From positions 1 through 64,000 of the IMG/VR virus record IMGVR_UViG_3300028327_000538: a stretch of 64,000 bases of DNA; one strand, given 5' to 3'. Each line of letters starts with the position of its first letter. Within the stretch, counting starts at the first letter, position 1. This document shows, one piece after another, positions 13,612 through 56,417 of this stretch. Source of the stretch: a virus. Taxonomy: Duplodnaviria > Caudoviricetes. Under the pieces are notes generated by a model. The model was not told the DNA's origin and did not search any database. It saw nothing but the letters and a program-made list of their open reading frames with translations. The translations under genes were made by a program, and so were the position numbers.

Positions 13612-15072
13612 TTATCTCAATAAAATATTAGGGGCGCAAGTTAAATTTGAATTTGACAGGTATATATCCTTAAAATCCGCGATTTTATTTAAATCCGGCG
13701 CTTCGGATGTCCCCAGGAGAACCTGTCTTAACCCCAGTCCTATGGCCGCGCTCATAACCGGATGCTCCTTGACCTGGTTTCTATATAATAGATACAAACC
13801 GGTAAGAACAGCCCCGACGCCAAGCTCACGATTAAACTCAGCGGAAGTCTTGATAAGTTTTCTCGCTGAATCGTAAATGCGATCCTCAAGGGTATGGATT
13901 GACCGCATGTTTATGGAGTCTTGCCTTATTCTTTCGGCGAGCATTTCAACCTTTTTACTCGCTGATGATGGCGTTGACAGCTCAAAGGTATCGGGGATCT
14001 TTGGATTACTGTCTAAAACAACTTTTGAGCCAATTACTTTTTTCGCTATTTCCTCTTGTTTGAGACATAAAAAAACGAGCGCGGCATATTCGTTTGGCTT
14101 CAATACAATACCCTTGCTGGCGTATGCTCCTAAAATATCCTGGAGATTATGATTAGCCGCCCTGACCATCGTTTTGAGTTCGCCAAATTCTATTGTGTCC
14201 TCCGCATTGGAGACGCGCTCAATAGCGTCCAGCATGTGCTGGGGAATCGCTATTGTCTCCGGTTCCTCCTCGGCCAGCTTGTCGAATCTGCCGATGTCGA
14301 AATAATCAGCCAGGTCGACATTGCCCGCTATCTTCTCCAACTGCATCCCGGCCAGAAACGCCGGGCGCGTCACTTTGGAAATGTCGAAAAATCTTGGGTG
14401 GAGATTAATGGCGGCGACACGCCTGCCATCCGCGAGAATTTTGTTCTTCTGGTACTGCAGGTGATTGCAGTAGCGCAATATGCTCGGAGCTTTGTTCCCG
14501 CAGATGGAGCAGACGTCATAGGGCACCGTGCATCCCATTGAAAATGACAGGGGGGTGTTCCTCGCTATCGCTTCCGCGGTTTCGGGGTCTTTTTTGTTAT
14601 TAACCTCAAGAATAAGAAGTATCGTGCCCATTTTAGGAAACCAAAACGAGTTTCTTACCTTACCAAAGGACGGATCTCGTTCTATCTTGTTCTTGTGATG
14701 ATGAAAAAAATGCGCGTCTTCAAAGGTCTTGTACCTGACTTTTGGTTCGCTTGATTGGTCAAGGCGCTCATCTTTTGACGGTTCATAAGATACGGAACCC
14801 CATTTTGTGCTGCTGTTCTGCTTACCGAGCAACGCGGCGACGGGAAAGTGATCGGCGTTGTTGTTCGCACCCCAAATATCACCGGCGCCCATAGCCGTCA
14901 GAAGCAGATAGCTATGCCCGTCTTTCTTTTTCAGACCTTTTATGGCCTCGTCAACTTCTTTCGGAAATTCCCTCTCATTCGCAACTTTATTAAAAAGAGA
15001 CCTGTCCCTATCCGCCAGGGAGAGTGAGATGCGATCTCTTTCGTTGAGGTTGGTGTCCAAGAGTTTGTACAT
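13612..15072 (-). CDS. Prohead maturation protease with Zn-finger insert
   Basis: NNNADHF, FHHHKN (candidate His), FSMGC (candidate Ser) followed by CSIC...CNH, then FFDISKV; upstream of scaffold and capsid genes. Confidence 0.7.
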   Translation of the reverse strand: MYKLLDTNLNERDRISLSLADRDRSLFNKVANEREFPKEVDEAIKGLKKKDGHSYLLLTAMGAGDIWGANNNADHFPVAALLGKQNSSTKWGSVSYEPSKDERLDQSSEPKVRYKTFEDAHFFHHHKNKIERDPSFGKVRNSFWFPKMGTILLILEVNNKKDPETAEAIARNTPLSFSMGCTVPYDVCSICGNKAPSILRYCNHLQYQKNKILADGRRVAAINLHPRFFDISKVTRPAFLAGMQLEKIAGNVDLADYFDIGRFDKLAEEEPETIAIPQHMLDAIERVSNAEDTIEFGELKTMVRAANHNLQDILGAYASKGIVLKPNEYAALVFLCLKQEEIAKKVIGSKVVLDSNPKIPDTFELSTPSSASKKVEMLAERIRQDSINMRSIHTLEDRIYDSARKLIKTSAEFNRELGVGAVLTGLYLLYRNQVKEHPVMSAAIGLGLRQVLLGTSEAPDLNKIADFKDIYLSNSNLTCAPNILLR

Positions 15073-17348: not shown

Positions 17349-18920
17349 TTAATCATTTTTATCTCCCCTCGGATCAAATGTCGTAATCCGCTCGTTGTTG
17401 TTGCACCCAAGATACATCAAATAGGCGTAAAGCAGCGAGTGGAAGCCGTCATCGGGCAGAGCGTGAGTATATATCATTTTACCCGTCTTATCAGAAAAGT
17501 CTTTGCTGATAGCGAGATAGTCCTTGCCGTATTGGGAAAACTCTTCCCATCTGAACGGGACTACATCGCCGTTTGTCAGCTTGTTAAAGAGGTCTGTCAT
17601 GACTTCTGTTCTGTTCGTGCGGTAGGTGCGCTGTTTCTTGTCCCAGGCCATGAAGTCCTTGATGTATTCATGGCGGATACGTGCCAGACGCGGCGGATCT
17701 CCCAGGCGCTCGTTAATTTCCTCGTTCTGCCCCCACCCGAAACCGTAGTCGGCGCCCACCATTCTGACGTTGAACTCTCTGCATTTTTTGACAATGAATT
17801 CCTTGATGTATTTGGGGTCGTTCTCTGAACCGCCGAATCTTTTGCAATAGACTATCCTGAGTTTTTCCGCGATTCTGTCGTGCCAGCAGATTGTCAGGAA
17901 TGTATAGCCTGACGATCCCGTCGTTTCATTTCCCATGCCCCAATCTATTCCAGCGTAATAAGCATGATTTTTAAGTTTTGCCGGAGGCTCCTCCCACATG
18001 GGGCGGGATTCTTCGCATAAGGCTATAAGCTGTTCGCGTGTAAGCGGCTTGACTCCGTAATCGTAAGGCAACCCAAGCACTTCATTAGAGAATCTCGCGG
18101 CGCTGTATGTGCGCTTGTTGCGGAACAGTTCGTCAAAATCAATGTACTGCGAGGGGAGCATCATGTATTGAAGGTGGATCCCCAAAAAGTCCTTTACATC
18201 CGGCTTGGCGGCCACCCAGATACCATCTAATGTATTTATCAGCCTACGACACTTTTCACACCAGATGCCAGGCTTGTCCATAATCATGTTGTCCTCACCA
18301 AGCTGATTCCAATGCGAGCAAGACCTGCACTTGATAAACCAATGGCATTGATTTGTCTGCTCCCAACTCAGATATAGAGTATTGTCACAAGTCTTTGGCG
18401 TTCCGGTGTAGAAAAACTTTTTCCTTGGCTTATGCTGAGAGCAGGTCTCAATGACGGGGACGAAATCCGCGTCAATGTCCTGGTATTCGTCAAAAAGAAT
18501 CAGTTCCGCTGTTACACCGCGAATGGAGTCAGGAGAGTGAAACGTTGAACGAAAGTGCATGTCCGAATAATTGCGGAGGTATTTGTCCTTGACGTTCATG
18601 ATCCCCTTGCGTCCTGGGTGAAAATTGTTTTTCAATAGAGGAGAGGCGAGCAAAATATCGTCTATTTTTTTTCGGCTGTAAATCTCCATTTGCTTGTGCG
18701 TTGGTGTAACATATAGACTTGAATGATAGCTGTTCATACAAGCCTCTGATAAATGGATACCCGACAACATTGTTGACTTCTCAGCCTGGCGGCTCGACAT
18801 CACCAAGGTACGCTTACACTGACTGTTAATAAAATAGAATATATACGGGCGGTCGGTAAAACGCCAGGGCTGCCCCTCAAGGTACATAGTCCGCTGAATA
18901 AAATCTGAACGTGAAATCAT
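17349..18920 (-). CDS. terL: Terminase large subunit
   Basis: SRQAEKST Walker A variant, IRG...ILFDEYQD Walker B, GTPKT motif III, NEVLGLPY, AGIDWG nuclease, DDGFHS; ATG 18920 preferred. Confidence 0.9.
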   Translation of the reverse strand: MISRSDFIQRTMYLEGQPWRFTDRPYIFYFINSQCKRTLVMSSRQAEKSTMLSGIHLSEACMNSYHSSLYVTPTHKQMEIYSRKKIDDILLASPLLKNNFHPGRKGIMNVKDKYLRNYSDMHFRSTFHSPDSIRGVTAELILFDEYQDIDADFVPVIETCSQHKPRKKFFYTGTPKTCDNTLYLSWEQTNQCHWFIKCRSCSHWNQLGEDNMIMDKPGIWCEKCRRLINTLDGIWVAAKPDVKDFLGIHLQYMMLPSQYIDFDELFRNKRTYSAARFSNEVLGLPYDYGVKPLTREQLIALCEESRPMWEEPPAKLKNHAYYAGIDWGMGNETTGSSGYTFLTICWHDRIAEKLRIVYCKRFGGSENDPKYIKEFIVKKCREFNVRMVGADYGFGWGQNEEINERLGDPPRLARIRHEYIKDFMAWDKKQRTYRTNRTEVMTDLFNKLTNGDVVPFRWEEFSQYGKDYLAISKDFSDKTGKMIYTHALPDDGFHSLLYAYLMYLGCNNNERITTFDPRGDKND

Positions 18921-18933
18921 AACTATATGATAG

Positions 18934-18968
18934 CGCAAATTTTAGTGAGTTTTTGTTATAAACAATAT
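18934..18968 (+). promoter_or_regulatory. Bipartite phage promoter-like motif, copy 1
   Basis: CGCAAA-N11-TTTTGTTATAAACAATAT, then hairpin GAGGAATAA-ttg-TTATTCCTC and TAAGGAG RBS. Confidence 0.7.
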
Positions 18969-21052: not shown

Positions 21053-21909
21053 GGCGTTTTAACAACACCATTCAGATCTTCCAATGTGTATGCTATCGGG
21101 TCTTGATATTCCGCCGGCGCCCCCAGAGTTTCAAACAGGCTCTGCATATTGGCTTCCGTGCCGCCGACGCCAAGCAACGTGTGATACTTCTCTATACCCG
21201 CCATCTTTATTTTAGTCCAGCTTTGAATATCTGCGGTTTTGTTTGAGCGTATGGCTCTCGTCAACTGCATGTCAATAATAACAAGAACCTTCTCCATTTC
21301 GGTCAGCGGACATCTCTCGACTGTTCCGTGGTCGGGCAGCTCAAGCAGCATCAGGATATGTTTACGGGAGTTATAGTCCAGGACTTGCTCAAAAACGGTT
21401 TTAAAGACAGTGTCAAACACGTACTTGCCGACCCAGGCGGACGGATCGCCTATCCTTGAGAAATCGGCAAAATACTTCAGATAACACCTGAGCACTTCTT
21501 CGTTCACCTGATCTTTCAGCAGATTGAGGATCGTCGGAGAGGGGCCGGGGTTTCTTCGGTTGTTGAAGACGGAACTCATCGCGAGCGCGTCCACTTTTAC
21601 GCGCATATCCGTATCGTACAAAAATTCGGAGAACGCCTCGCTGTCAATCATTGAGTCAATATCAATGTATCCGGCGTCCCTCAGAAATATTTTGAACTCC
21701 TTGTCAGTCAAGGCAAGGCTATCGTGCACGGCGTCCTGGACTGACATCGCGCCCAACAGCTTTTCGGCTATCGCCAGGTTTGCGGGGCCGTCAATGATGT
21801 AATATGGGAACAGATCAATAAGTATGCGCGAGAAATCGTATTTGTATCTCCTGCTCGCCACGAGCAGATAGGGCAGTAGCGACTTATAGATACAATCCCT
21901 CGATTCCAT
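21046..21909 (-). CDS. Hypothetical phage core protein
   Basis: MESRDCI start at 21909 coupled (TAATG) to the upstream stop; 287 aa. Confidence 0.6.
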   Translation of the reverse strand: MESRDCIYKSLLPYLLVASRRYKYDFSRILIDLFPYYIIDGPANLAIAEKLLGAMSVQDAVHDSLALTDKEFKIFLRDAGYIDIDSMIDSEAFSEFLYDTDMRVKVDALAMSSVFNNRRNPGPSPTILNLLKDQVNEEVLRCYLKYFADFSRIGDPSAWVGKYVFDTVFKTVFEQVLDYNSRKHILMLLELPDHGTVERCPLTEMEKVLVIIDMQLTRAIRSNKTADIQSWTKIKMAGIEKYHTLLGVGGTEANMQSLFETLGAPAEYQDPIAYTLEDLNGVVKTPH

Positions 21910-23597
21910 TACGCCGCCAGAATATTGAGTTTTGTGATGATCATATCCAGGGCGTTGATAGCGTCCAGAAGCTGAGATTCTTCGATCTTGATCTCTTTGC
22001 GGTTCAGTCTCTTCAGGAACAGTATCTGGCAAAGCCTTTCGAGGGTCTTCGCGAAATCGCCGGACAGCAGACACATCTTGCGAATTGTCGCCGGGGTTAC
22101 GGCGTGAATCTCAAGAGCCTGATCAACGCTTGTGGGATCAAGCTCGCTGATGTCCAGGGCTGTTTTCAGCAGGTTGGCGTCTTCGGCTATTTTGGCTATT
22201 TCGGCGGCAAGTTCAACGTCTTCCGCTGAAGCTGTTTTTTCTTGCCTGCCGGGTCTGCCGGTATAGGCGAAGTTGGCGGAGCCTGTGGCTTGCGCCTGCT
22301 GCACAATCTTTTCGGCGTCCATCGTGTTGAGACCGGTCTTGGTCAGTACCATCAGAGCCTTGACTTTGCTCGTGCCGGTAAGCATGTGCTTATCCAGGCC
22401 GGTGACGCCCTTTTCATCGACATCATACACTCCGGTGGGCGAGTAGCGGACAACGATATTCGTTGAGGCCGTGACTTCCATGTCTGGAGTGTTTCTCTCT
22501 CTACCAATTTTCCTCATTCCCAGAATTTGGTAGTAGTCGGGGATTAAGATAGTGTTATCAATGATCTGCATCTTTTTTAATCCCTCGACAGGTTTAATTA
22601 CGACGTTTCCGTCTAAACCGTCACGTATAGCCAGATACGACAGTTGGTTCCCTATGCGGTCAACTGATTTAAGCGTATAAGGCCCACTGACGAGATCGCC
22701 GTGTTTGATAAAGAAGTCGTCTCCAATACCGGGTGTAAAGCCTGATATGTCAGGTCTGCTTTCACCAAGCACCTTGATGTAAAAATTATTAACCCCCATA
22801 TCGTAATAACCATCGGTAGTCAGAGTTACCGGTGAATTATCGTGGAGCTGGAAAGCCTCTCCACGATACTCTGTGCCTCTTGATACGAAATGTCCCCAAT
22901 TCTTATTTGGTTTATAGGACGGCGCGGGGGCGCTTACATTTTCAAGCCTGGTAAAGGGCGGCAAGTCAGATAGAATGACGTAGCCTCTCCGCATCGCCAT
23001 TTTGAGTATTTCGGGGCCATAGGTATGGGCAAACTCAGGTATTGTGCAGGACGCTTCTTTTTCAAACGTGGTGATGGTGACTGGAAGCGCGTTTTGTGAG
23101 TTCACCGTTATTGTTCTAACGCCACCATCATATGTTTCGTGAGGGCCGACACCCTCCAGTAATTCAGGGTGAAGCATGGCGATTTTGAGCAATGTGTCAT
23201 GATGCTTGTCGAGAAAATCCTGCGAGTAGGTTCGCGCAGTCTTAAAAAGCTGCGCTCTATCCTTTTTAGGAACCGACTTAAAGGGCCATGAGCCTTGTTC
23301 GAGAAACTTTATTGTTCTCTCGTTAAGCGGAAGCATCGTTTTTTTGTCGGTATACAAGTCAAGCGGCGACATTTTATAACGGTTAATAACAATCGGAATG
23401 CGATATTTGTTGCTTAAAAGGATATACCCAAGGGCAGTCCCTGTGCTTTCGTCAATCTTGGGGCACTCAAACCGCTCGATCTTACCTCTGAGTCCGGGAT
23501 ACTTCGCCGTCAGCTTTGTTATGGCGATGTCCCCCCACTGTTGTGTGTCAGGAGGCAGAGTAATTTCGGATGTTGAGTTGAAAAGTTCTTTAAGCAT
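21909..23597 (-). CDS. Large K-x-A motif virion-associated protein
   Basis: FKTA, LKIA, EKEA, LKMA, EKTA, AKIA, LKTA; ATG 23597. Confidence 0.65.
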   Translation of the reverse strand: MLKELFNSTSEITLPPDTQQWGDIAITKLTAKYPGLRGKIERFECPKIDESTGTALGYILLSNKYRIPIVINRYKMSPLDLYTDKKTMLPLNERTIKFLEQGSWPFKSVPKKDRAQLFKTARTYSQDFLDKHHDTLLKIAMLHPELLEGVGPHETYDGGVRTITVNSQNALPVTITTFEKEASCTIPEFAHTYGPEILKMAMRRGYVILSDLPPFTRLENVSAPAPSYKPNKNWGHFVSRGTEYRGEAFQLHDNSPVTLTTDGYYDMGVNNFYIKVLGESRPDISGFTPGIGDDFFIKHGDLVSGPYTLKSVDRIGNQLSYLAIRDGLDGNVVIKPVEGLKKMQIIDNTILIPDYYQILGMRKIGRERNTPDMEVTASTNIVVRYSPTGVYDVDEKGVTGLDKHMLTGTSKVKALMVLTKTGLNTMDAEKIVQQAQATGSANFAYTGRPGRQEKTASAEDVELAAEIAKIAEDANLLKTALDISELDPTSVDQALEIHAVTPATIRKMCLLSGDFAKTLERLCQILFLKRLNRKEIKIEESQLLDAINALDMIITKLNILAA

Positions 23598-23623
23598 AAT
23601 TATTACCGCCACGGAAGGTCGTA

Positions 23624-23725
23624 ATGGGAATAGTCGAAATCATAGGAAGTATTGTACTTTTCTTCGTGGTAAGAACACCCGAAGACGAAGAGGCAGTGCG
23701 CTTCTTCCGCAATATCTTCAAATAG
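23624..23725 (+). CDS. 33-aa hydrophobic peptide, copy 1
   Basis: MGIVEIIGSIVLFFVVRTPEDEEAVRFFRNIFK*; GGAAGG RBS; paralog at 39766..39867. Confidence 0.7.
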   Translation: MGIVEIIGSIVLFFVVRTPEDEEAVRFFRNIFK

Positions 23726-23838
23726 CCGTAAAGCTCCCCGCTGTCGTATGATACGCGGGGAGCTAACGGATCTTTTTTATAACTTGCTGGCATATATATG
23801 ATTATAGCATAATGGCTTAAACACAGAAAGGAAGGCGA

Positions 23839-24375
23839 ATGAGCATCAACTTTTTACCGACTCATCATATGGTTGAGGGCGCGATAAATATAAAACTGAT
23901 AAATATTAATCCAGAATACAATACTCTGCCTCTGGAAACGCCTTCAAGATCATATTATATTGAAAAAGAAACTCCTGAAAATCTAACTCCAATGGCGCAA
24001 TGGCTGGCTGACAATGTTCCCAACGCCACAAGGAACAGAGGTTTGTTTACAGTCAAGGTTATTGATGACACGCGGACGCAAGGCGACATCAACAGAGAAC
24101 AGAACGCAAGAACTCGTTGGGGATGGGGCCAGTATTTTAGCACCCCCGAACAGGCTCTTGAATCAACAGAAAAAATGATCAGAGCATATAACCTGGACGC
24201 GGAACCGGCTACAATAAAAGACTTCGACTTTCCTTTATACAATGGAGAGCCGGTAAGCGAATATTGGGAAAAAATCGCAAGCCATCTACAGTCGCAAGGG
24301 ACAACGAGAATTATAATAACAGACCATAATCAGAATAAGGTTTGCTACCCGCCCAGCAGCGAGCAACGCACATGA
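23839..24375 (+). CDS. Hypothetical protein
   Basis: AAGGAAGG RBS; 178 aa. Confidence 0.6.
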   Translation: MSINFLPTHHMVEGAINIKLININPEYNTLPLETPSRSYYIEKETPENLTPMAQWLADNVPNATRNRGLFTVKVIDDTRTQGDINREQNARTRWGWGQYFSTPEQALESTEKMIRAYNLDAEPATIKDFDFPLYNGEPVSEYWEKIASHLQSQGTTRIIITDHNQNKVCYPPSSEQRT

Positions 24376-24581
24376 ACATCAAATCAATCAAATTTGCCAT
24401 TAGGATTTACTGGAAAGAGATATTTGGAGACGATCCGTTTGTTCCTATAGTGATTGGGACTGCGATTGCCGCTACAATTTTAGGTGTAATTCTTTATAGG
24501 CTGTATGGACATCCATTTGACTATATTCTTGTTGGACTAGGTCTATTGGGGCTTGTTTACGCAAAGTGGGGAAAATACTAA
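24372..24581 (+). CDS. Small two-TM membrane protein (paralog of 53463..53687)
   Basis: KSIKFAIRIYWKEIFGD...YGHPFDYI. Confidence 0.7.
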   Translation: MNIKSIKFAIRIYWKEIFGDDPFVPIVIGTAIAATILGVILYRLYGHPFDYILVGLGLLGLVYAKWGKY

Positions 24582-24922
24582 CCGCATATTGTTTGTCGAG
24601 ACGGTTTCAGACTGTTTTCTTCTTCCTCTTCTCGTCGTCTTGCCTCTACAACGCCCTCAGAAAAACGATTACCTAAAGTGGCGGCGATTGTTGGCGGTAT
24701 GCCAACTTTGGCGCCTAACACCACTCCAACGCCAGACGCAAGAATGCCAGCGGCCAATAGAGCGTCTCTACGCTTTTTGCGTTTCTTCGCTTCGGCCATT
24801 TTTACCAAGAAATCGGCTACAACTATCTGTCGATCATATCTCTCAACTACACGTTGAGCCGCTATCTTGAGTAGCTCTCTTTCCCTAGGGCTGAGGTCGG
24901 CAAGTCTGAAACAATTGATCAT
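24578..24922 (-). CDS. K-x-A protein with basic patch and Gly-rich hydrophobic helix (paralog of 53671..54039)
   Basis: RLADLSPRER...VERY...LVKMAEAKKRKK. Confidence 0.7.
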   Translation of the reverse strand: MINCFRLADLSPRERELLKIAAQRVVERYDRQIVVADFLVKMAEAKKRKKRRDALLAAGILASGVGVVLGAKVGIPPTIAATLGNRFSEGVVEARRREEEEENSLKPSRQTICG

Positions 24923-24984
24923 AGATCAATTATCTCACAAAAGAGGCGGCAACGCTTCTTTTTAGCTATTAGAGGCAGTCTTTA

Positions 24985-25296
24985 TCAGCTTCTGCTCGCT
25001 CTTTTGAACATAGCCAAAATCCTGGCCCGGCTCTCATCGTCCTGAGCGGCTTCGCCTTGGCGCACGGCATCAGCAAAACTTTCACCAGGGCCTCTTCTTT
25101 TGTAAAATATGGCGTTCAGAATGTCCTGACCGTTACTAAGCCCCTCTACTATGGAACCTTCACACATCGCGTCCGCAAAGGTCTGGTCGGGGCGTCTGTA
25201 GGGTTTGTTGTCTGCACATCTGTCTCTTGACGCAGCATATCGATCATATCCCTGTTCAATTTGGAGGGCGAGTTCTTCTGGGATTGAATCAGTCAT
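24985..25296 (-). CDS. Hypothetical protein with an internal repeat
   Basis: RRPDQTFADAM / RRGPGESFADAV. Confidence 0.55.
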   Translation of the reverse strand: MTDSIPEELALQIEQGYDRYAASRDRCADNKPYRRPDQTFADAMCEGSIVEGLSNGQDILNAIFYKRRGPGESFADAVRQGEAAQDDESRARILAMFKRASRS

Positions 25297-25495
25297 TTGG
25301 ATGCCTCAAGCGTTCTATTACTCTTTTGTATTGACCATAGACAGATGGCTCGCGCCTGGACGCAAGGAGCTTGTCCAATTTTATTTCTTTGCCGGCATTA
25401 GGAGTGCGACTTTCCACCCATTCCAGATCGCTGGTGCTTTGTTCCAGTTGCTCTATACAGCTAAGAGATTTTATTTCTTCTGGGGTCAAAGTCAT
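25289..25495 (-). CDS. Small hypothetical protein
   Basis: AAGGA RBS; coupled to the next gene. Confidence 0.5.
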   Translation of the reverse strand: MTLTPEEIKSLSCIEQLEQSTSDLEWVESRTPNAGKEIKLDKLLASRREPSVYGQYKRVIERLRHPND

Positions 25496-25940
25496 CTTGT
25501 ATCCTTCAAATTACTTTCTTAAAGTTCAAATCTTTCAAACGAACCACCTATTTCGTTTAGAGCAGAGATAATTTGAGGGTTATTTACCGTCCTACGAAAA
25601 TCTTCAGGTTGCTGTTTGTCGTCGAGCAAATCTTTAATCTTATGCGAATCAAATATTTTAGGGTTTTTGCATATACGATAAATTACAGAAATCGCTAAAC
25701 ATATAGCATACACAAGCACTGCCATATAGAGATAAAAGACAATATCAATAATTCTAATTATCATTTCTCACCGCTCCGCTTTAATTGAAGTGATTTTCGC
25801 AACATTGCAGGGTTACTAATCCTTCGATTTTAGACAAAACTTCTATGACTGAGGCAATTTTCTCATCAACATAGGCATTTACTTTCACACAGACTGTCTT
25901 GTGCATATTTAACTAACACCAATACCATTAGTGTACATCA

Positions 25941-26561
25941 TCACACGTTCAACAAGGCTTCCATTGCTTCGGCATACCTGATCTTAATGTTAGGCTCTAT
26001 TTCCGTTAAATAATTAGCATATGAGGCTGCCTCGTCCTTGGTCATTAAGGGTTTTGTCGTAGGAGCTTCTCGCAGCGCCTCAAATATACTACATAAACTG
26101 AGGGGCTTGCGTTCTGTATCTTCGGAGTCCTCACCAGGGCCATCCCATTCTTTAAGATCATAAGTATAATCAACCAAGTCTTCCCAATCCCAGGCTCCGA
26201 AATAGTCATACACCTTAGCCATAGTCACCATTTCTTGATAGGCGAATAGGTTGAAATCACTGTCTTTTAACTCTCTGGTGAGTTTGAGATTGCCTTCATC
26301 GTCCTTTTTGCATATCCATAAATCCCATTCGGCTTGGTCTGCGGAATTTGCTATGCCCTCGAATAAGTCCAGCACTTTTTCGAGCGCCGGCCCTCGTTTC
26401 ATTGAGAGGTAAGAGTCATCGCTGATCGGAAACCTGTACGTAGCCAAAGCTCGTCTATCCGCCAGATACATCAGCTTCATAAGTTTGGCATGGTGCATTG
26501 AGCCGCCAGCGCGGTAGAGAAAGTAAGCCGCCATCTGTGCTACTTTGCGTACTTTATACAT
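25941..26561 (-). CDS. Panacea-domain (DUF4065/SocA-like) antitoxin
   Basis: AAYFL...KLMKLMYLADR...PISDDSY.SM..GP...EW; GGAGG RBS. Confidence 0.85.
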   Translation of the reverse strand: MYKVRKVAQMAAYFLYRAGGSMHHAKLMKLMYLADRRALATYRFPISDDSYLSMKRGPALEKVLDLFEGIANSADQAEWDLWICKKDDEGNLKLTRELKDSDFNLFAYQEMVTMAKVYDYFGAWDWEDLVDYTYDLKEWDGPGEDSEDTERKPLSLCSIFEALREAPTTKPLMTKDEAASYANYLTEIEPNIKIRYAEAMEALLNV

Positions 26562-26613
26562 TCTCTCCTCCTGTCTAAAACTATTTTATCAGTATGTAGA
26601 GAGGTTTTGAGGC

Positions 26614-27072
26614 TTAAATTATTTTCCCATTACCCGAAACAGCTTTATTCAATCTATCCAACATCATAAAGGTATAAAACATCTGTTTGGGACTGGTGTC
26701 GCGGTAGTAAAGACTATAAACAAACTCTTCCGTGAAACTATCGCTTATTCGTTCTATGTTAATATCCAACAAGCGCATAGCAAGCAAAAACGCAAAATAC
26801 TCATTAACTGTTATATATTTTGTGTGCTTTTGAAACGGTTGAATGGCTATTGGCTTTACTTTTGATAGCCAATAGACCAAAAACGCGGCCTGTTTATGTA
26901 ATTCAGAATTGTCGGAATCATGGAAAGTTTCAAAGCGCTCCAAGTCTTGTGCTAGTGATTCACTTGCAATGTCAACTAGGATAGGAACCATCCGCAAACC
27001 AGAATTTCTATCGCGTGTTCTGAAAATTTCAAACTGGTTGTATATCGTTGCGGCAATACTGGTAGCGTTCAT
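26614..27072 (-). CDS. Hypothetical protein upstream of the Panacea antitoxin (possible toxin)
   Basis: KQAAFLVYWLSKVKP...NEYFAFLL loosely recalls Doc/Fic helices but lacks HPFxDGN. Confidence 0.45.
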   Translation of the reverse strand: MNATSIAATIYNQFEIFRTRDRNSGLRMVPILVDIASESLAQDLERFETFHDSDNSELHKQAAFLVYWLSKVKPIAIQPFQKHTKYITVNEYFAFLLAMRLLDINIERISDSFTEEFVYSLYYRDTSPKQMFYTFMMLDRLNKAVSGNGKII

Positions 27073-27308
27073 TTATTGTCTGTCGAGTGTGGTTTGGACG
27101 CAAAAAGCCTGTTAAATTTTTTTACGCAGGCATCCATAAACTCAGGGGTCATTTCTAGCGACTCACGGGTGAGTTCCTTCCCTTTGTTTGGTCGAGTTTC
27201 CGCTCCCCAATTATTGTAGTCTGGACTTGCCCTCAACTCTTGAATCTCGGCTAAACATTCATCATAACTCTTTGGGTGGTCTTCTGCATCCATTGCCGTA
27301 TACCTCAA
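27069..27308 (-). CDS. Small hypothetical protein
   Basis: Coupled by ATGA overlap to 26614..27072. Confidence 0.5.
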   Translation of the reverse strand: MRYTAMDAEDHPKSYDECLAEIQELRASPDYNNWGAETRPNKGKELTRESLEMTPEFMDACVKKFNRLFASKPHSTDNK

Positions 27309-27467
27309 AATAGGTCAAGAATTATCTTACCCTAGATTTGTTTTTCTCGCCAATTTGTTCTGCTTATCCAATCAAGCATTCCAAATTTTAGCTGTTTGAC
27401 AAGCACAATGCAACAAATACTGCTCTCTATCCTGTGAGAGAACACATTTATGTTACTTCTACAAACA

Positions 27468-30400
27468 TTAATACCTCCCCTCACCGGAATCAGCAAGGTT
27501 TCCCGACACGAATGGGAGTACGGGATTGTAGCCGTGAATGTCGGATTTGTAACCGTAGGCGGCTCCTTCCTGCAGCCCTTTCTTGAGATAGCGGTATCCA
27601 AGGTGCGCGGCCCAATCACGGCTTTTGAGCGGCGCCTGTGTCACTCCCTCAAGGTGCGGCGTGTATGAAATGGGCTGGTGCATGGCTACTATCTTTTTGC
27701 CCTTCAGCTTCTGTATTTCATCCTCGCCAAGCCTCGTGCCCTTTTTGAAACCGGCGACGGGCTTGGCGAGAACCATTCCGTAAGCCTGTTCCGCCTGGAC
27801 GTTGTAGGGCTTCATGGCTTTTTGGTTCCATGTGTTTATCGTTGAGAGCGGGAGGACTTCGTTCATAACGGCTGTCGGGTTTGTTCCGGCGTCTGTTACC
27901 TGACCGAAGCCGGCCATGCCGCGCACTACTGTCTCTATGTTCCTGCGGTCGGTTTTGATGCCGGTGCCCTGATATAACTTTTGAAGCGTGGAGGAGATGA
28001 CATTGAGGCCCTTGTTGACGCCCAGGAGTTGCAGGGCCTGTTTGGGATGCGGCAGACCATGTGACAGCAGAGTTCCCTTTTCAACGGTGTCACCCGGTTT
28101 TACCAGGGGTTCCTTGTCGGTGAAGTGCTTGGTGTTGTCCACGAATATCTCGTATCCGCCCGCCGCGCCCTTGTTCACTTTTGTGACCCTGCCGTTGGTT
28201 GTCGCCATCGCCGCCTGTTGCTTGAATGTCTTGGGGGCTTGCAGGAACGAGGCTATGTCCTCGAATCCGCCGAACACACCGCCGCCGCCTGATGTCGTGC
28301 CGCCAAGGTGGAATGTCTTCATGGCGGCCTGTGTCAGAGGTTCCGATATGGCCTGTGCCGACTGGACGCCGATATTGTGGCCTATCTGGTAGAGGTTGCC
28401 CGTGCTGTCATGCCCCGCGCATTTCCGGCATATACCGTTGGCGGACTGGCAGGTGGCGGGCGACCTGACAATGACGGGCGCTTTTTTCTTAGCTATCTGG
28501 ACTGCCATCTCTTTTGTGATGAGCTTGCACTCCTTTGCGAGATAGCGTCCGGCCAGATACGGGTCGTCCGCCGGAAGTTCCAGCCCCTCTTTTGTCTTGC
28601 AGTCCTCCTGCGAGACAACGATGGACATTGACGTGTTGACTATCTCTTTGTTGAGGGCACCGGGCTTGCTCGTCATCAGTTGTTTGTCCAGTGAGCCTTT
28701 ACGCGCTCCGTAGAGCGTAGTCCAATAATCGGGGAAGCTCATGCCCTGGGCGTAATTCGACAGCACCGGACGTTCTATCGGCTTGCCGTCATGATCCTGC
28801 AAAATACCGGGGGCGTAGAGTATCTGTTTGACCTGCTCCGCCGACCCTCTGGCTCCGCTGGCTGCCATGACCACAAAGTTGTTGGTCTTGTCGTCAAGCG
28901 CCTGGGCTTTCACTTTCGCGTCGGCGGCCACCATCTGAGGAAGTGTCCTGGCTCCTTTGTAAGCCTGCGTGACAACGCCGCGGTCTGCCTCAAGGTCTTT
29001 GAGCGACAGTGAAAAGCCTACGTCCGTGGCGGCCTGGTCTCCGATACCCTTGATGGAAGTAACTATGCGGTTGTAGTATTCGGGGTATTTCTTCGCTATC
29101 TCCTCAAGGCGCTTCTCCACATCGGCCTTTGTGATGCCAGCCTTGAATTTGGATACGCGCTTGGGGAGCAGTTTGTTGATTTTACTGAGGCCGTCCTTGC
29201 TTTGGGACATGAGGTGCAGCCCCAGAATGGCCTCCTGATCAGGTGTGTAGTTGAGCCTGTTGTCTCTGGGGTTATAGAGGTTCTTGCTCGGCATCATTTC
29301 AAAGGCTTCTTTCCGGGCTGCTTCTGTGGCCGGAACATGAAGCGTCGCGGTGTCGCCATCAAAGTCCATGCTGAAGGGTTTGACTATAGTGCCGGGCACT
29401 TCGATTGACAGCCCCTTGGTCAGGGTTGGCTGAAAGCCCATGATGGAAAACTTATGCAGAGACGGCGCACGGTTCATCAATACCGGGCGATCAGACATGG
29501 CTGCTTCCAGGGACTTGCGGCCAATGTCGTCCAGCTCCTCAATATGCTTTTCGGCCTCTTTGTGGGCATAGCCAATGTTTTTGAGGTTCTTCATGGCAAA
29601 GGGCTTGTAGATTGTCTTTGCTATCTTTTCAGGTATTGCTATCTGATCCATGTTCAAATTGTTGTTCAGCACGACGGTTGCGCGTCCGGTGAGGTCGACC
29701 TGCTTTCGGACTACCTTTGACTGGAACATACCGCGCTTGGGGCTGCCCTCGCCGGTGATGATTCTTAGAGCGCCTTTCGCGCCCATCTTGCCTGTCTGCT
29801 CCGAAACCGGAGAGGCGACGCCCTGGATCGCGCCCAAACTCTGATACAGTGTCTGTGTCAGTTCAGGACTTTTAGTTCCGCTCTTGAGGGCTTCATTTGT
29901 CACGCCGAGATCGCGATACAGCATATTGAGCGACGAGACTTCCACGTTGCCGCTGGGAAGCTCGAAAGCCGGTCTGAACTGGGGCGGCATGACGGGGACA
30001 ACGCTTGTCATGTAGGCTTCTTTCGGCTTCATGCCGAGTTCTTCAAGGGCTTTAAGCAGCTTCAGCTCCTTTAGCATCGCTTCTTGTTTTGTCTTTGGGG
30101 CGGTCTTGATGCCCTTTGTGATCTGGTCAATCTTGCCTCTGACGTTGATGCCGGACAGCTTTTCGGATATTGCCTTGTGCCCGTCCTCGTCTTTTATGGC
30201 TTCCTGAAACTGTTTCTCAGTCATGCCAAGCAAGGTCTTTACCGGCGAGGCGAACATTGGGTTCACAATCGGATGCGCCAGTGTAATCTTCGACCACTTC
30301 TGCCCGTTTGAGCCGCCTGTCAGAAAGCGGTCAAAGAGTCCGCCCTTGATGGGGTTGCGTTTGTGGTCTAGCATCTTGAAGTTACGCAGCTCGTTTGTCC

Positions 30401-33392
30401 CCGCGTAATCAAGAGCGTCCTTGTCGGTCATGGGGGCCAGTATGCGCTTTGAGCCGTCCGTCCTTACGTTTACACCGGCGGCGTTAAGCGTGGCCTCAAA
30501 TTTGTTGTATATAAAGGGAACCTGCGGCTTGGGAAGCGGCAGGCCGTTTTCGAGGTTCTGCCAGTAATCCGCGTTCCCGTCGCCGCGGACAGTGGAAATC
30601 TCGCTGACGACATTGCGCTTGCCGTGGGAAAGCAGACTGTACAATGTCAGCGGGTCAACGGCCTTTGAGCCGTCCTCGCCGCCTTTGATTGGCTTGTTGT
30701 CCATGTCATACATTCCGACATCCCTGGCTGACACATTCGCTGTAGCGGTTTTGAACAGCTTCTGTATGACGGGCCTGCCGACAAGCACCTTGCCGTATTC
30801 TTTTTTGGTCACTGGGTCTATGAGCGTCTCGGTGTCTGAGATGCCGTGTTTCTTTAGGTCTGCCTTGACTTTTTCCAGGGACTTCTCGTCAAAGTTTTTG
30901 ACTAGGTAGGGCTTTCCCGTCTTTTCGGCTATCTTGCTCGCGGCGGTCTCAATGAGCTGGCCGGGGGTCATGCGTGTGATTACGCTGGCGGGTGAGATTA
31001 TCACCTCGGTGGACGCGCCGCCGGCTGTCTGGGGCATTTCTTTGTCGGCCACTATCGCGGTTATCACGCCCTTGTTGCCGTGACGCATTGAGAGTTTGTC
31101 GCCGACGATGGCGGGGGATTTGGTCTTTATGCTAACCTTGGCGTTGCTTCTGTTGACCGTGGCGGCGACTACCTCGCCGGGATTGAGCGCCGTCCATGTC
31201 TGCGAGGCGTCCTGGTATGGCTGCACAAGCGACCTGTGGAGGCGGTTGAACATCAGGTCTTCATTCGTGCCTGTGGTCTTTTGCAGCGTGAGAGCTGTCG
31301 GGTCTCCGGGTTCGAGGATAACGCCCGGTTTCGCCAGTCCGTTGTCGTCTATCTTTGCCAACTGCTCTTTTGTGTACTTTGTCGGGTACAGGGACATGAA
31401 CTTTTTCTTGTCTATTATAACGTCCTCGCCGTCTTTGGCGATATGAGTCTGAATCATGTGGTTGGACGTGAGCTTTTTGGCGGCTGTTTCTGAAACAACA
31501 ATGCCGTCCTCGAAATTCAATCCTTTCCAGGGCATGTAGGCCACTCTGAGATTGGAGCCGAGGGCCAGTGTGCCGTTCTTTGTGAAATTGGAATCCGCTA
31601 TCAGCTCGTCCTTTTTGAATTTCTGCCCGACTTGCAGCTTGTCTATGCCCTCGTGTGTTAGATAGGATTTGTTTTGCAGTTCAAAGTCTTTGTAGTAAGG
31701 TATTTTTATGTCGCCTTTGCTTGTAGAGAAGATGATATGTGACTTGCTTATCTGCTTAATGGAACCATTTTCGGGCGCTTTAATAGCAAAGCTGGCGTTT
31801 CCTGAGTTGGCTGTTAAGGATTCGATTGATTTTTCGCCCGCCAGCGAAGTTTGAACCAACGGGGCTTCCCTGTTTTCAAGGGATATTGCCTGGGCTATCT
31901 GCCTTGTAGCCATGCCGAGGCGATTGCCCTGGTCGTGGTGCTGAAGCGGTATAAACTGGCTGGCTATGCCAAAGGCTGAGGCTGTGTCGCGCAGTTGGTG
32001 CGTCACTTTGGCGGCGTCAATCTGCACCTGCTTGCCGCGGTGTATGGCCGTGACCTTGCCTTTGAGTTTCTGCTGGGGCAGTGCTATAACTTTGTCAAAA
32101 GCCTGAAGCGCGGAGAGTTCCTCAACCTTGTTGGTCTTGACGTTCTTGAATTTGGATACAATCTCATTGCCTCTTTTACTGGCGTCAACGGTCATATTGA
32201 GGACAACGCCGATCTTGTTGGACTCCGGCGTGTTCACGGGATCAAGGAAGCCAAGGTGCGTGGGGTGCAGGGCCTGGCTGTCGGGCATTATCGCTTCGGG
32301 ATTCTCTATGCCGCCCTCGCCTGTGATTGTGACCTTATCGTTGCCTTTGAGCATCGCTATTGGGTTTATCTGGCTTGGATTTTCTGAGAGCGCGGCGGAG
32401 TTGAAGAACGAGTTGATTGGTTTGCTGAAATACTGAGACGACACTATTTTTGTCAGGTCGTCGGACTTGCGGAGTCTGCTCGCGAGCTGATGGCGGATAC
32501 CGTTCTGGCTTCTCCTGAGCTTCTCGGTGACAAAATCCGGCGTTGAATGCAGTGTCTTAAATGCCAGGGCGTCGCGGTCGTCGGAGTCCTCTATCTTGCG
32601 GCTCACGTTCAGAACCTTTTCCAGGCCGCGGAGAATGAAACCGCCGTCAAGTCTGTCAAACTTCTTGCCCATCGTTATCTCTGTAACCTTGGGGTCGAGC
32701 TTGGCGTTCTTCATTGCCTCGGAGAGTTCCTGAGCCATTTCAGCGACGGACTTTTGTTCGGCGCCGATTGCGTATGGGTTGACCGAGCGGTAAAATCGCC
32801 TGATTTCATCGGACATCTTGGCGTCCGTCAGCTTTTCGGTATTGGCCTTATAGACATCGGCGCCAAATGTGCGCTTCATCTGCTCGTGCGATACGCCCAG
32901 GGCGGACAGAACCGGTATGGCGTTGATTTTGGCCTGATTCACATTGATGGAGAGGTTCTTTGTCTCAGGGTCTATGCCAAGCCTGATTTGCTTGAATCCG
33001 TCGGGATTGACGTGGGCCTCAATCTCGCCGTTCTGCTTGGTGCGGGAATAGAATCCGGGGCGGAGCCGCAACTGGTTGTTGATTTGATACTGGACGCCCT
33101 GCACCACGTACGTTCCGTCGCCGGTCTGCGTGGGGACCGTCGCCAGCTTCATTGTCTTGGTTTCTGTCTTGCCATTGGCCTGTGTAAATGTGACGTCGCC
33201 CATAATCGCCACGCCATAGGTCTTGTCCAGACGCTTGGCCCTGGAAATGGCGTGGTAATTGGTCGGGTCGGCGTTCTCGGTATTGGATACACGCAGGTTG
33301 GAGACGGTGAGTGTCTTGTCGCCCGATTTAATCGGGAATGTGCTTTTTATCTGGTTGATAACAGAATCAATCAATGGCTGGGTTTGGTTCAT
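27468..33392 (-). CDS. Phage DNA-directed RNA polymerase, fused beta + beta' (probably virion-packaged)
   Basis: beta: TPE..KIG, HHDQGNRLGM, AYMPWKGLNFEDGIVVSE, GDKLSMRHGNKGVI, RMTPGQLIE; beta': GGLFD, VPVMPPQFRP, RKQVDLTGR, NRAPSLH, DFDGD, SGARGS, GARKG, RSPATC..IC..C, AQAISEPLTQAAMKTFH. Confidence 0.97.
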   Translation of the reverse strand: MNQTQPLIDSVINQIKSTFPIKSGDKTLTVSNLRVSNTENADPTNYHAISRAKRLDKTYGVAIMGDVTFTQANGKTETKTMKLATVPTQTGDGTYVVQGVQYQINNQLRLRPGFYSRTKQNGEIEAHVNPDGFKQIRLGIDPETKNLSINVNQAKINAIPVLSALGVSHEQMKRTFGADVYKANTEKLTDAKMSDEIRRFYRSVNPYAIGAEQKSVAEMAQELSEAMKNAKLDPKVTEITMGKKFDRLDGGFILRGLEKVLNVSRKIEDSDDRDALAFKTLHSTPDFVTEKLRRSQNGIRHQLASRLRKSDDLTKIVSSQYFSKPINSFFNSAALSENPSQINPIAMLKGNDKVTITGEGGIENPEAIMPDSQALHPTHLGFLDPVNTPESNKIGVVLNMTVDASKRGNEIVSKFKNVKTNKVEELSALQAFDKVIALPQQKLKGKVTAIHRGKQVQIDAAKVTHQLRDTASAFGIASQFIPLQHHDQGNRLGMATRQIAQAISLENREAPLVQTSLAGEKSIESLTANSGNASFAIKAPENGSIKQISKSHIIFSTSKGDIKIPYYKDFELQNKSYLTHEGIDKLQVGQKFKKDELIADSNFTKNGTLALGSNLRVAYMPWKGLNFEDGIVVSETAAKKLTSNHMIQTHIAKDGEDVIIDKKKFMSLYPTKYTKEQLAKIDDNGLAKPGVILEPGDPTALTLQKTTGTNEDLMFNRLHRSLVQPYQDASQTWTALNPGEVVAATVNRSNAKVSIKTKSPAIVGDKLSMRHGNKGVITAIVADKEMPQTAGGASTEVIISPASVITRMTPGQLIETAASKIAEKTGKPYLVKNFDEKSLEKVKADLKKHGISDTETLIDPVTKKEYGKVLVGRPVIQKLFKTATANVSARDVGMYDMDNKPIKGGEDGSKAVDPLTLYSLLSHGKRNVVSEISTVRGDGNADYWQNLENGLPLPKPQVPFIYNKFEATLNAAGVNVRTDGSKRILAPMTDKDALDYAGTNELRNFKMLDHKRNPIKGGLFDRFLTGGSNGQKWSKITLAHPIVNPMFASPVKTLLGMTEKQFQEAIKDEDGHKAISEKLSGINVRGKIDQITKGIKTAPKTKQEAMLKELKLLKALEELGMKPKEAYMTSVVPVMPPQFRPAFELPSGNVEVSSLNMLYRDLGVTNEALKSGTKSPELTQTLYQSLGAIQGVASPVSEQTGKMGAKGALRIITGEGSPKRGMFQSKVVRKQVDLTGRATVVLNNNLNMDQIAIPEKIAKTIYKPFAMKNLKNIGYAHKEAEKHIEELDDIGRKSLEAAMSDRPVLMNRAPSLHKFSIMGFQPTLTKGLSIEVPGTIVKPFSMDFDGDTATLHVPATEAARKEAFEMMPSKNLYNPRDNRLNYTPDQEAILGLHLMSQSKDGLSKINKLLPKRVSKFKAGITKADVEKRLEEIAKKYPEYYNRIVTSIKGIGDQAATDVGFSLSLKDLEADRGVVTQAYKGARTLPQMVAADAKVKAQALDDKTNNFVVMAASGARGSAEQVKQILYAPGILQDHDGKPIERPVLSNYAQGMSFPDYWTTLYGARKGSLDKQLMTSKPGALNKEIVNTSMSIVVSQEDCKTKEGLELPADDPYLAGRYLAKECKLITKEMAVQIAKKKAPVIVRSPATCQSANGICRKCAGHDSTGNLYQIGHNIGVQSAQAISEPLTQAAMKTFHLGGTTSGGGGVFGGFEDIASFLQAPKTFKQQAAMATTNGRVTKVNKGAAGGYEIFVDNTKHFTDKEPLVKPGDTVEKGTLLSHGLPHPKQALQLLGVNKGLNVISSTLQKLYQGTGIKTDRRNIETVVRGMAGFGQVTDAGTNPTAVMNEVLPLSTINTWNQKAMKPYNVQAEQAYGMVLAKPVAGFKKGTRLGEDEIQKLKGKKIVAMHQPISYTPHLEGVTQAPLKSRDWAAHLGYRYLKKGLQEGAAYGYKSDIHGYNPVLPFVSGNLADSGEGRY

Positions 33393-33429
33393 ATATTAAT
33401 TTTAACACGCATTGATGTATAATATAGTT

Positions 33430-33871
33430 ATGCGCTATCCACAATCAAATCAGTTGCCTATACCTTTAACAGGGGGGGCTTCCAGAGGTCGATTGGGGCA
33501 GAAAGATAGTTTTTGGCAAATATATCCGAGGCGAGGCTGATAACGGATACTTTCCCAAAACATTTGCCGCAGATCAAAGCCGCTCTTGCCCCGTCTTCAA
33601 AGCCCCCGAAAACGGGCTGGTCATGTGTGTCTTCCACAACGACACAGTTAGTAGTTACATATCTTTTTCTTTTTATATAAACAGAGACAAAAACAATTTC
33701 GATTGGCGTGACCGCGTATGCGTCGCGCGCGCGGTTAAATCAGACTCCAAAAGCATATGGATACCAATCAACAAAGACGATGTGTTTAGCGTGGATATAT
33801 TTTCGTCCAACGCGATAACAGTGGACTGGCAACACGCCTTCGCTATGTTTTGGCCGTATAGGACAAGCTGA
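33430..33871 (+). pseudogene. Fibre-tip-like gene frameshifted at a G7 tract (candidate phase-OFF allele)
   Basis: MRYPQSNQLPIPLT-G7(33472-33478), then the +1 frame LPEVDW...DNGYFP...FKAPENGLV...IPINKDD...AFAMFWPYRTS*, homologous to 57613..58167; G6 or G9 restores the frame. Confidence 0.75.
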
Positions 33872-33874
33872 CAC

Positions 33875-33909
33875 CGCAAAAAATAAGGGCGTTTTGTTAT
33901 AAACACTAT
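33875..33909 (+). promoter_or_regulatory. Bipartite phage promoter-like motif, copy 2
   Basis: CGCAAA-N11-TTTTGTTATAAACACTAT. Confidence 0.65.
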
Positions 33910-33976
33910 TATTTTTAGCTATTGCTTGCAGGGGGGCAGTGCGGTAGAATATAAATACATATTAAAAGGAGAAAAT

Positions 33977-54388: not shown

Positions 54389-56032
54389 TCACCAGTTCAG
54401 TTTCTTAAACTGTATGTCTTCCGGGTTAATAAAGTAGCGGCATGTACGATATGTGGCGCTCAGACCCTCGACGGGTATGGGATATATCTGTCTGGTTGAC
54501 AGGTAGGTGATTGTCGAACCGTCGATATTATCCATGTGCAGGACGGCATATGTGGGGATGCCGCTCTTGCCCTCGCATGTCTCAGTGATTACGCCGTTGT
54601 CGGCGAGTTTGTATGGCAGGTTGTTTCGGTCTTCCCATGTTTCCTCAAACTTGACGGGGACGCCGATTCCATCAAAGAGTTCGTTGAAGCGCAGGTTTGT
54701 CGGTGACGACCATGTGTTTATGCGATTGGCTAGAATTGCTGTCCAGGCTTCTTCATCAAGGCTGCCCTCATACACCACGACGAGCTTTTTAACCTGAACA
54801 GGGATGAAGGATTTGAAGAGCAGGTCGCAGTTCAGCAGGCGCGAGGAGTTTGCCGATTCCTGAATATTCTCCATGTTTGAGTATGTTTTGTATGACAGCG
54901 TGACGGTATTGTCGGTTGCGCGTTCAGTGGTTCTGACGCTGATCCGCAGACGCTCATAGATTGAATACCTGTAGTTCTTGCCCCAGGCTATGTCGGGGAG
55001 TATCTCTACTGAATAGTCAACGTCGCCGTTGGGCTTTTTGGCGAGCTTGCTGTAATCAAGGCCGCCTATGGACGACTTTTCCCAATCAATCAGCACGATT
55101 GGCGTCACCGGGATATTGCCCTCGCACAAGCGCCAGCTACACACGGTGCCGTTGTAATTAATGCCGCTGTATCTGGCAAAATCGAAAGAATAGACGTTGC
55201 CGCCTTTGTCGGTAATGTTGTTTGTCGTAAACTCGGCGTCAACCAGGGGGCTTTTGATGTAGGCGTCTATCCGGCTACCGATGTGCCCCGACCAGCCCCG
55301 CGAGGCCACTGAGATGTCGCGCTGCATTTCGGGGTCTCCGAAGCCGACGGCGAGTATGTCAAAGATGTCGTAGGCACTCTTGTAATTGGCGATTATTGAG
55401 GCGGAATTGACGTCGTTCCTGGTTGAAAGACTGTTTTGAATGGTGGTGAAATACTCTTCGTTGGTTTCGGCTGCGATGGGAGCGGACGAGGCGTTTTCGT
55501 TTCTGACAAAGGCCAGCCCGTTTGCGATGACGCTCGTTTGTGTAACCGCTCCGGCGGGGACGACCCCTGAGCCGTCAAACTTAACAGTAATCTTGGCGGC
55601 ACGATATTCCGCTCCGTCTATGGTCACTTTCGGCATTGAACCGTAAACAAGAATATACTCGCGCAACGGATACCCGACTGCGTTTGAGCTTGTCCGAAAC
55701 GTGTCGGTTGTATTGACGACAATAGGCTCCGCGTTGCCGGACTTAAAGTACATCGAAACCTCAACAGTAACGCTGTTCGCCGTGCGTCTCGGCGGAGCCA
55801 TCAGCATTTTGCCGATGTTGTCCAGTTGTTCCTCGCCGAGCTGACTCGGATCTGAAAACAGCAGGTATCGCTGAATCCACTCCACGACATCCCAGGTGGC
55901 CTTGCTCAGCATGGCGAATGGAAGCACAGACAGGTTGAACGTGGCTGAATTGGGCGAGAGGTCAACATTGGCGAATCTCTCATCGTCCTTGAGCGTGTTT
56001 ACGGCAAATGTAATGGCATCCTCAAATCTCAT
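54389..56032 (-). CDS. Baseplate J-like wedge protein
   Basis: EEQLDNIG, ETNEEY..IQNSLS.R, VGFGDPEMQRD, HIGSRIDAY; follows a gp25-like gene; ATG 56032. Confidence 0.7.
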   Translation of the reverse strand: MRFEDAITFAVNTLKDDERFANVDLSPNSATFNLSVLPFAMLSKATWDVVEWIQRYLLFSDPSQLGEEQLDNIGKMLMAPPRRTANSVTVEVSMYFKSGNAEPIVVNTTDTFRTSSNAVGYPLREYILVYGSMPKVTIDGAEYRAAKITVKFDGSGVVPAGAVTQTSVIANGLAFVRNENASSAPIAAETNEEYFTTIQNSLSTRNDVNSASIIANYKSAYDIFDILAVGFGDPEMQRDISVASRGWSGHIGSRIDAYIKSPLVDAEFTTNNITDKGGNVYSFDFARYSGINYNGTVCSWRLCEGNIPVTPIVLIDWEKSSIGGLDYSKLAKKPNGDVDYSVEILPDIAWGKNYRYSIYERLRISVRTTERATDNTVTLSYKTYSNMENIQESANSSRLLNCDLLFKSFIPVQVKKLVVVYEGSLDEEAWTAILANRINTWSSPTNLRFNELFDGIGVPVKFEETWEDRNNLPYKLADNGVITETCEGKSGIPTYAVLHMDNIDGSTITYLSTRQIYPIPVEGLSATYRTCRYFINPEDIQFKKLNW

Positions 56033-56417
56033 TTGAATCTCCCAGGGGCAGCTTGATATAGCGCACGCCATAGTCAGTCTTAACCGAAATGTTCACGGTT
56101 GCGCGTTTGGACGCGACATTGAAATCAACGGCGCCCAGGACGACATCCTGCAGGTCTGGATGGCTGCCCTTTATCTGCTCGGCAATCATGGACAGGCGGC
56201 TGGACATCTCAACCGAAAACTGCGACTTGTCGCCATAGGTCGTGAGGTCTTCAACGTCGCCACCAAAGAAGCGGCCCCACTCAAAATTTCTGGTGTTTGA
56301 CAGAATGGCGACACAGAGCTGCTGAAGCAGCAGTTCAAAGCCGCTGACTTCTTCGCCAGTCCAGCCAAAGGTGATAAAGCCGTCGTCGGCGATTTTGATA
56401 ATTTTCAGGTCAATCAA
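56022..56417 (-). CDS. gp25/GPW-like baseplate wedge protein
   Basis: VSGFELLLQQL..ILS...FGG; 131 aa directly upstream of the J-like gene. Confidence 0.6.
   Translation of the reverse strand: MIDLKIIKIADDGFITFGWTGEEVSGFELLLQQLCVAILSNTRNFEWGRFFGGDVEDLTTYGDKSQFSVEMSSRLSMIAEQIKGSHPDLQDVVLGAVDFNVASKRATVNISVKTDYGVRYIKLPLGDSNEI

Follow-up and report, generated by a model that had tools for sequence, protein, structure and literature searches.

The cellular-type RNA polymerases of phages so far are assembled from many pieces (phiKZ and AR9), encoded by two genes (mReC and Arash), or are diverged single chains (crAss-like gp66 and YonO). The multisubunit enzymes of phiKZ and AR9 need no alpha or omega, and the natural RpoBC fusions of Helicobacter and Wolbachia are full-length cellular enzymes of about 2.8-2.9 kaa with alpha2 and omega. 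Phages of the phiKZ/AR9/YerA41 type encode beta and beta' homologues distributed over 4-5 polypeptides, usually as two sets (virion and non-virion), with no sigma70 factor reported among them (PMC7598289, PMC7824862). The mReC polymerases (Weinheimer & Aylward 2020, PMC7481178) belong to uncultured large tailed phages and consist of bacterial-like, deeply branching beta and beta' proteins; in the shorter type these sum to ~1000 + ~905 aa. At least within parts 9-11 of Supplementary Data 2 of that study, beta and beta' are separate in all entries, and some of the contigs described there carry two sets (PMC7481178). On the other hand, crAss-like gp66, YonO, and the TMP-fused RNAP of P23-45 place both catalytic barrels on a single chain, which in some cases the virion delivers, but they are too diverged to be detected by beta/beta' family models (PMC7481178). 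The only cultured relatives found for the polymerase of this study were Salmonella phage Arash (Gp206 and Gp216, with sigma Gp10; OQ632216.1; PMC10585845) and Vibrio phages D69, D148, and D181, which have genomes of 180-187 kb, a sigma70-family factor of their own, and a polymerase in two genes, whose products comprise beta with the front part of beta' (~1525 aa) and the remainder of beta' (~607 aa).

The gene that was the focus of this study is the opposite extreme: one compact chain, clearly collinear with beta and beta', with hundreds of family members. It is located in a 64,000-nucleotide stretch of DNA (referred to as the window), corresponding to positions 1-64,000 of IMG/VR virus record IMGVR_UViG_3300028327_000538 (Duplodnaviria; Caudoviricetes; 96,165 b, rated 58% complete). 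Since the window encodes a large terminase subunit (17349-18938) and a head maturation protease (13612-15072), and since the record is a virus record, the DNA was assigned to a phage. A sequence-only reading of the window had described a single ORF in which beta motifs run into beta' motifs, joined near 30440-30500; the ORF proved intact, Pfam found beta and then beta' families along it, and the junction was mapped to nt ~30440-30465, inside the proposed range. The features of the gene are as follows.

27468..33392, minus strand: whole gene, single-chain beta-beta' RNA polymerase, 1974 aa (P0001; ORF and Pfam)
30462..33392, minus strand: beta module, residues 1-977 (alignments; AlphaFold2 pLDDT 89.4; bacterial beta fold, TM 0.75)
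32316..32408, minus strand: equivalent of rifampicin-pocket cluster I, residues 329-359 (alignment)
31227..31274, minus strand: equivalent of the flap-tip helix, residues ~707-722, kept (alignment)
31068..31103, minus strand: beta double-psi barrel motif GDKxxxRHGNKG, residues 764-775, family-invariant (alignment)
30423..30479, minus strand: beta-beta' junction, residues 972-990 (family alignment and AlphaFold2)
27471..30461, minus strand: beta' module, residues 978-1974 (alignments; AlphaFold2 pLDDT 91.0; bacterial beta' fold)
30294..30317, minus strand: site of the Zn-ribbon deletion (E. coli ~68-99), flanks joined by GGSNGQKW (alignment)
29808..29945, minus strand: lid and clamp helices, residues 1150-1195 (alignment)
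29352..29372, minus strand: catalytic loop SMDFDGD, residues 1341-1347 (alignment)
28611..28748, minus strand: bridge helix, residues 1549-1594 (alignment)
28419..28601, minus strand: second Zn site, kept, C1598, C1648, C1655, and C1658 (alignment)
28281..28388, minus strand: trigger loop, residues 1669-1704, without the SI3 insert (alignment)

The ORF begins with ATG and runs through 1974 codons with zero internal stops. Pfam families of beta (Rpb2_3 and Rpb2_6) covered residues 341-904 with an E value of 1e-43, and those of beta' (Rpb1_1, _2, _4, and _5) covered residues 1083-1837 with an E value of about 1e-24, while the top matches in a sequence search against solved structures were all bacterial beta' chains (E values down to 1e-87). 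BLASTP, a family-profile alignment, and MAFFT revealed collinearity with beta and then beta' across the full series of conserved regions, although the identity to any bacterial beta or beta' was 22-30%. Residues were mapped by alignment to the enzymes of E. coli, S. aureus, and a member of the Saccharibacteria, and the catalytic elements were kept relative to both E. coli and the small bacterial enzymes. When the chain was modeled with AlphaFold2 as two overlapping parts, residues 1-1000 and 800-1974, the pLDDT values were 89.4 and 91.0, respectively, and the best Foldseek matches of the models were bacterial beta and beta' chains (E values of 1e-71 and 1e-54; TM 0.63-0.76). These results suggested that the most likely product of the gene is the catalytic core of a bacterial-type RNA polymerase, complete and in a single chain.

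In the beta module, SI1 and SI2 of E. coli were absent and the lobes were trimmed by about 55 residues, while the NFED motif (residues 626-629) was kept. Three positions of the rifampicin pocket were substituted (D516 to S, H526 to G, and S531 to T in E. coli numbering), from which it may reasonably be inferred that the polymerase is rifampicin-insensitive. The near-universal beta motif GGQRFGEME was replaced family-wide by a conserved G-x-Q/K-x-x-G/D-x-L-x-L-Y (residues ~904-925; nt ~30618-30683).

The beta' module lacked SI3, the N-terminal Zn ribbon, and several loops; rudder, switch 2, and the C-terminal conserved region were kept. The Zn ribbon was cut out precisely, and the stretch contained no cysteine in 76 of 77 family members and a single one in the 77th. 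The three aspartates of the catalytic loop are invariant in the family; the loop reads NADFDGD in 65 of the 77 members, and in the subclade of the query the first position is S or G and the second M, L, or A. The segment of the lid and clamp helices measured 46 aa in this subclade versus 50-56 aa in the remaining family, and no correlation was observed among relatives between the length of the clamp helices and the presence of sigma.

The C-terminus of beta lies near residue 977, and the N-terminal strand of beta' begins near residue 983: the last beta strand (GVNVR) passes through a turn of ~5 residues (TDGSK) into the first beta' strand (RILAP). This stretch was conserved without gaps in 77 family sequences, and AlphaFold2 folded it as a tight hairpin with pLDDT of 95-97 across it. 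The RpoBC fusions of Helicobacter and Wolbachia are likewise joined head to tail, beta C-terminus to beta' N-terminus; however, those proteins fall inside the bacterial radiation, whereas the query, at about 1.97 kaa, belongs to a phage clade.

The sequence-only reading had also called the enzyme compact, and this description is fair: the smallest bacterial beta and beta' pair in the sample totals 2253 aa against 1974 aa, and the phage chain was 280-790 aa shorter than the sampled bacterial pairs. The compactness is due to the absence of lineage-specific inserts and of the beta' N-terminal Zn ribbon, and to trimmed lobes.

A family profile search detected relatives at at least 570 loci of IMG/VR, and among the best 80 of these, 76 carried an uninterrupted ORF of 1984-2235 aa spanning the whole profile. 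More than 100 clusters of ~2000-aa proteins were found in the protein database, on contigs of up to 215 kb, some of them with inteins. Full-length members also occurred on contigs of 55-176 kb binned into MAGs of unrelated phyla, which are probably mostly mis-binned phage genomes. In an unrooted maximum likelihood tree (IQ-TREE quick search, LG+G4; 42 rows and 2022 columns) with a small bacterial sample of 12 beta and beta' pairs from Proteobacteria, Bacillota, Actinomycetota, Bacteroidota, and Patescibacteria, these pairs formed one clade (SH-aLRT 100), and the query was placed within a separate phage clade of 27 rows (SH-aLRT 100), outside the bacterial rpoB/rpoC radiation and therefore not clustered inside host rpoBC. 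Arash and the three Vibrio phages grouped with the fused forms, to the exclusion of bacteria, as a sister clade, and YerA41 formed a very long separate branch. Exactly one polymerase gene per genome was present in the two relatives that are 100% complete; one of these has terminal repeats.

The resemblance to Arash and the D69-type Vibrio phages extends to about 30% identity over the whole length, a slimmed architecture, and the loss of the Zn ribbon, but their enzyme is divided into two genes, whereas that of the query is one chain. The polymerase pieces of Arash are 4.8 kb apart; in D148 and D181 an annotated homing endonuclease underlies the match, and only small hypothetical ORFs lie between the pieces in D69. 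Although the summed length of the shorter mReC type is close to that of the query, the criterion for mReC was separate beta and beta' genes of at least 800 aa each; the query, with its single gene, does not qualify and is set apart from mReC by the descriptions only (PMC7481178). Furthermore, the complete relatives of the query had one fused gene, in contrast to the two sets on some of the mReC contigs described. The query differs from the phiKZ/AR9 type in being one chain with one copy per complete genome, and from the crAss gp66/YonO type in matching six Pfam beta/beta' families collinearly with the bacterial subunits. No description of the fused form was found in the literature (open-access text searched), including two reviews (PMC7598289, PMC7824862). 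As far as could be found, this is a large and undescribed fused variant of the cellular-type RNA polymerases of phages.

Several candidates encountered in these comparisons were set aside. P0140, considered as a possible mReC sequence, proved to belong to the fused clade, and the splits elsewhere in this clade (L083 and P0140) look secondary; P0130 was cut by a contig end; and P0193 and P0219 were cellular split beta' genes, not mReC. Further fused beta-beta' ORFs were observed on short MAG-binned contigs: L108:1572-7691 (2039 aa, Jettenia), which was sister to bacteria in the tree, and L107:6965-13918 (2317 aa, Bacillus), which was sister to the phage clade. These fusions may be independent or older. 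Members of 2.4-2.9 kaa (P0058, P0060, P0077, P0079, and P0085) contained intein and LAGLIDADG domains, and the polymerase genes of Vibrio phages D148 and D181 (H1 and H2) were interrupted beside a homing endonuclease; the polymerase gene is repeatedly targeted by mobile elements.

The statement of the sequence-only reading that no alpha, omega, or sigma gene is found in the window held for the whole 96-kb record. Neither alpha (PF01000) nor omega (PF01192) gave a match anywhere in this record, nor in any of 10 near-complete relatives (each at least 91% complete), which fits, but does not prove, a core independent of alpha. With sigma (PF04542, PF04545, PF08281, and PF04539), there was likewise no match in the 96-kb record, and profiles built from the sigma factors of relatives, applied in searches that included six-frame translations, detected no counterpart in it. 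Using Pfam sigma regions 2 and 4, a sigma factor was found in about half of the near-complete relatives and in none of the query's subclade; the conclusion that this subclade is sigma-less was overturned by a divergent sigma seen through region 3. A 232-aa ORF, 4.2 kb upstream of the polymerase gene of the nearest complete relative, matched Sigma70_r3 above the curated cut-off of Pfam, and this divergent sigma70-family gene (~225-232 aa) was conserved in each of the four nearest relatives at a distance of 4-9.5 kb upstream of the polymerase gene, as follows.

L020:5076-5774: sigma70-family gene
L004:5105-5773: sigma70-family gene
L005:5590-6258: sigma70-family gene
L066:372-1040: sigma70-family gene

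A profile of this divergent sigma matched chains of RpoD, SigA, and RpoS across regions 2 to 4, with an E value of about 1e-8; since Pfam sees only region 3 of it, scans with regions 2 and 4 miss the gene. Sigma70_r3 was matched in 9 of the 10 near-complete relatives. With this and the genes in the four nearest relatives, the idea that the polymerase also works independently of sigma is not supported, and the lack of sigma in the query's record does not extend to the family at large. Two other region-4-like matches were not sigma factors: the one adjoining the polymerase gene in G002 was a LAGLIDADG endonuclease, and the one at 73.3 kb of the query's own record was a SieB protein.

The query retains the flap-tip and clamp-helix docking sites for sigma. 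The simplest reading, which we adopt as an assumption, is that its own sigma gene lies in the missing part of the record, since the record covers 58% of the genome and the surroundings of the polymerase gene are rearranged in it. Compared with the four nearest relatives, in which a 567-aa gene (own copy, 21909-23612) directly follows the polymerase gene, the two genes are separated here by ~4 kb of small genes (window 23600-27400), so that this block, which includes a SocA/Panacea antitoxin-domain protein at 25941-26561, looks like an insertion. The 567-aa gene and a 560-aa gene (54389-56071), both conserved as neighbors of the polymerase gene, were also considered as counterparts of the Arash/D69 portal; however, the hhalign probability was 0.1 for each, and an argument from adjacency of the polymerase gene to the portal is therefore unavailable.

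We propose, with a probability of roughly 0.75, that the single-chain core functions with a phage sigma, without alpha, omega, or the host enzyme, and that some of it is carried in the particle. The beta module would continue through the turn of ~5 residues into beta', bringing the double-psi barrels, bridge helix, trigger loop, lid, rudder, and clamp into one chain. The small sigma70-family factor of the phage would pair with this chain via the retained flap tip and clamp helices, and the two proteins would read phage promoters without the host enzyme. The covalent beta-beta' link may stand in for the alpha dimer and omega, which assemble the bacterial core, and alpha and omega would be dispensable because such a linkage can replace the assembly platform. 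By analogy with Arash, a portion of the enzyme probably travels in the particle so that early transcription can start. Against this proposal, the sigma partner is assumed (none in the 96-kb record, 58% complete), the clamp-helix segment of the subclade is ~6 residues shorter than in the rest of the family, and the Zn ribbon is missing from the entire family. In bacteria, the clamp helices and the beta' Zn ribbon touch sigma or promoter DNA.

The alternative that survives best concerns the last step: the polymerase may be a non-virion enzyme only, made by the host polymerase after infection for middle and late genes and never injected, as are the non-virion enzymes of phiKZ and AR9. Bearing on this, the region upstream of the gene was inspected.

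33393..33925, no strand assigned: region upstream of the polymerase gene, 533 nt, with one weak sigma70-like match (9/12) at 33448-33421

That single match would suit transcription by the host polymerase, but matches to the consensus in this region were not above the shuffled expectation. No clear Shine-Dalgarno sequence was present in 33393..33925, and neither intergenic k-mer enrichment nor a fuzzy search with the 31-mer upstream of 33926 revealed a promoter-like repeat in common with the polymerase gene. No class of promoter emerged from these analyses, including the late type from which the sequence-only reading had argued for virion packaging. The packaging evidence is indirect and comes from Arash, a relative with ~30% identity: Gp206, Gp216, and sigma Gp10 were detected in purified virions, Gp206 with the most spectra, and the authors allowed that abundant enzymes may co-purify with particles as contaminants (PMC10585845). 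In spite of this caveat, the polymerase pieces and sigma were among the most abundant proteins of the Arash particle (PMC10585845), and the polymerase gene is single-copy in the complete relatives of the query. Taken together, the Arash proteomics and the single gene per genome make virion delivery of the fused polymerase plausible, and an exclusively non-virion enzyme appears rather unlikely.

It is quite improbable that the fused chain forms a hybrid with the host, in which the host alpha dimer (and omega) would be needed for assembly or for the response to activators. In favor of such a dependence, these phages encode no alpha or omega, and the beta' C-terminal conserved region, which binds omega in bacteria, is retained. 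On the other hand, the multisubunit enzymes of phiKZ and AR9 work without either subunit, alpha loses its main role in assembly once beta and beta' are covalently linked, and the identity to bacterial beta or beta' is low (22-30%). A single ORF produced by assembly or gene calling, or a recent capture of host rpoBC, is refuted by the same uninterrupted ORF in 76 of the best 80 independent IMG/VR contigs, the gap-free and conserved junction, and the fully supported branches between the query and 12 bacteria of several phyla.

Returning to the single-chain core with a phage sigma, a chain that is active with sigma alone would be a minimal holoenzyme of the bacterial type with simple genetics, suited to studies of structure and mechanism, a natural test of the need for alpha, omega, and the Zn ribbon, and a candidate orthogonal transcription system. 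In its strongest form, the proposal would be a self-sufficient machine of two proteins, the ~2000-aa beta-beta' chain and a ~230-aa sigma, carried in the particle and working with no alpha, omega, or host factor at all. We advance this form tentatively, with the odds somewhat against it; if true, it would be the smallest natural bacterial-type holoenzyme, with a fusion stable across hundreds of phage lineages. In addition, surveys that demand separate beta and beta' matches can miss much of the diversity of phage RNA polymerases.

The record also contained other genes of note. At one end of the window (1-5219, plus strand), a cluster encodes a 4Fe-4S protein, a polysaccharide pyruvyl transferase, a radical SAM/SPASM enzyme, and two GT2 glycosyltransferases, and no homologue of the GT2 at 3185-4252 was found in five related phage records; the cluster may represent an accessory cassette, or host DNA if this end is chimeric or the border of a prophage. 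SieB genes usually reside in temperate phages, and a protein with a SieB superinfection-exclusion domain is encoded in the query's own record, outside the window (G000:C1:72989-73546; L096:1216-1773). Among the relatives, G030 (the record behind L059) is classed by IMG/VR as a provirus and three others have direct terminal repeats, and the lifestyle may not be uniform across this phage group.
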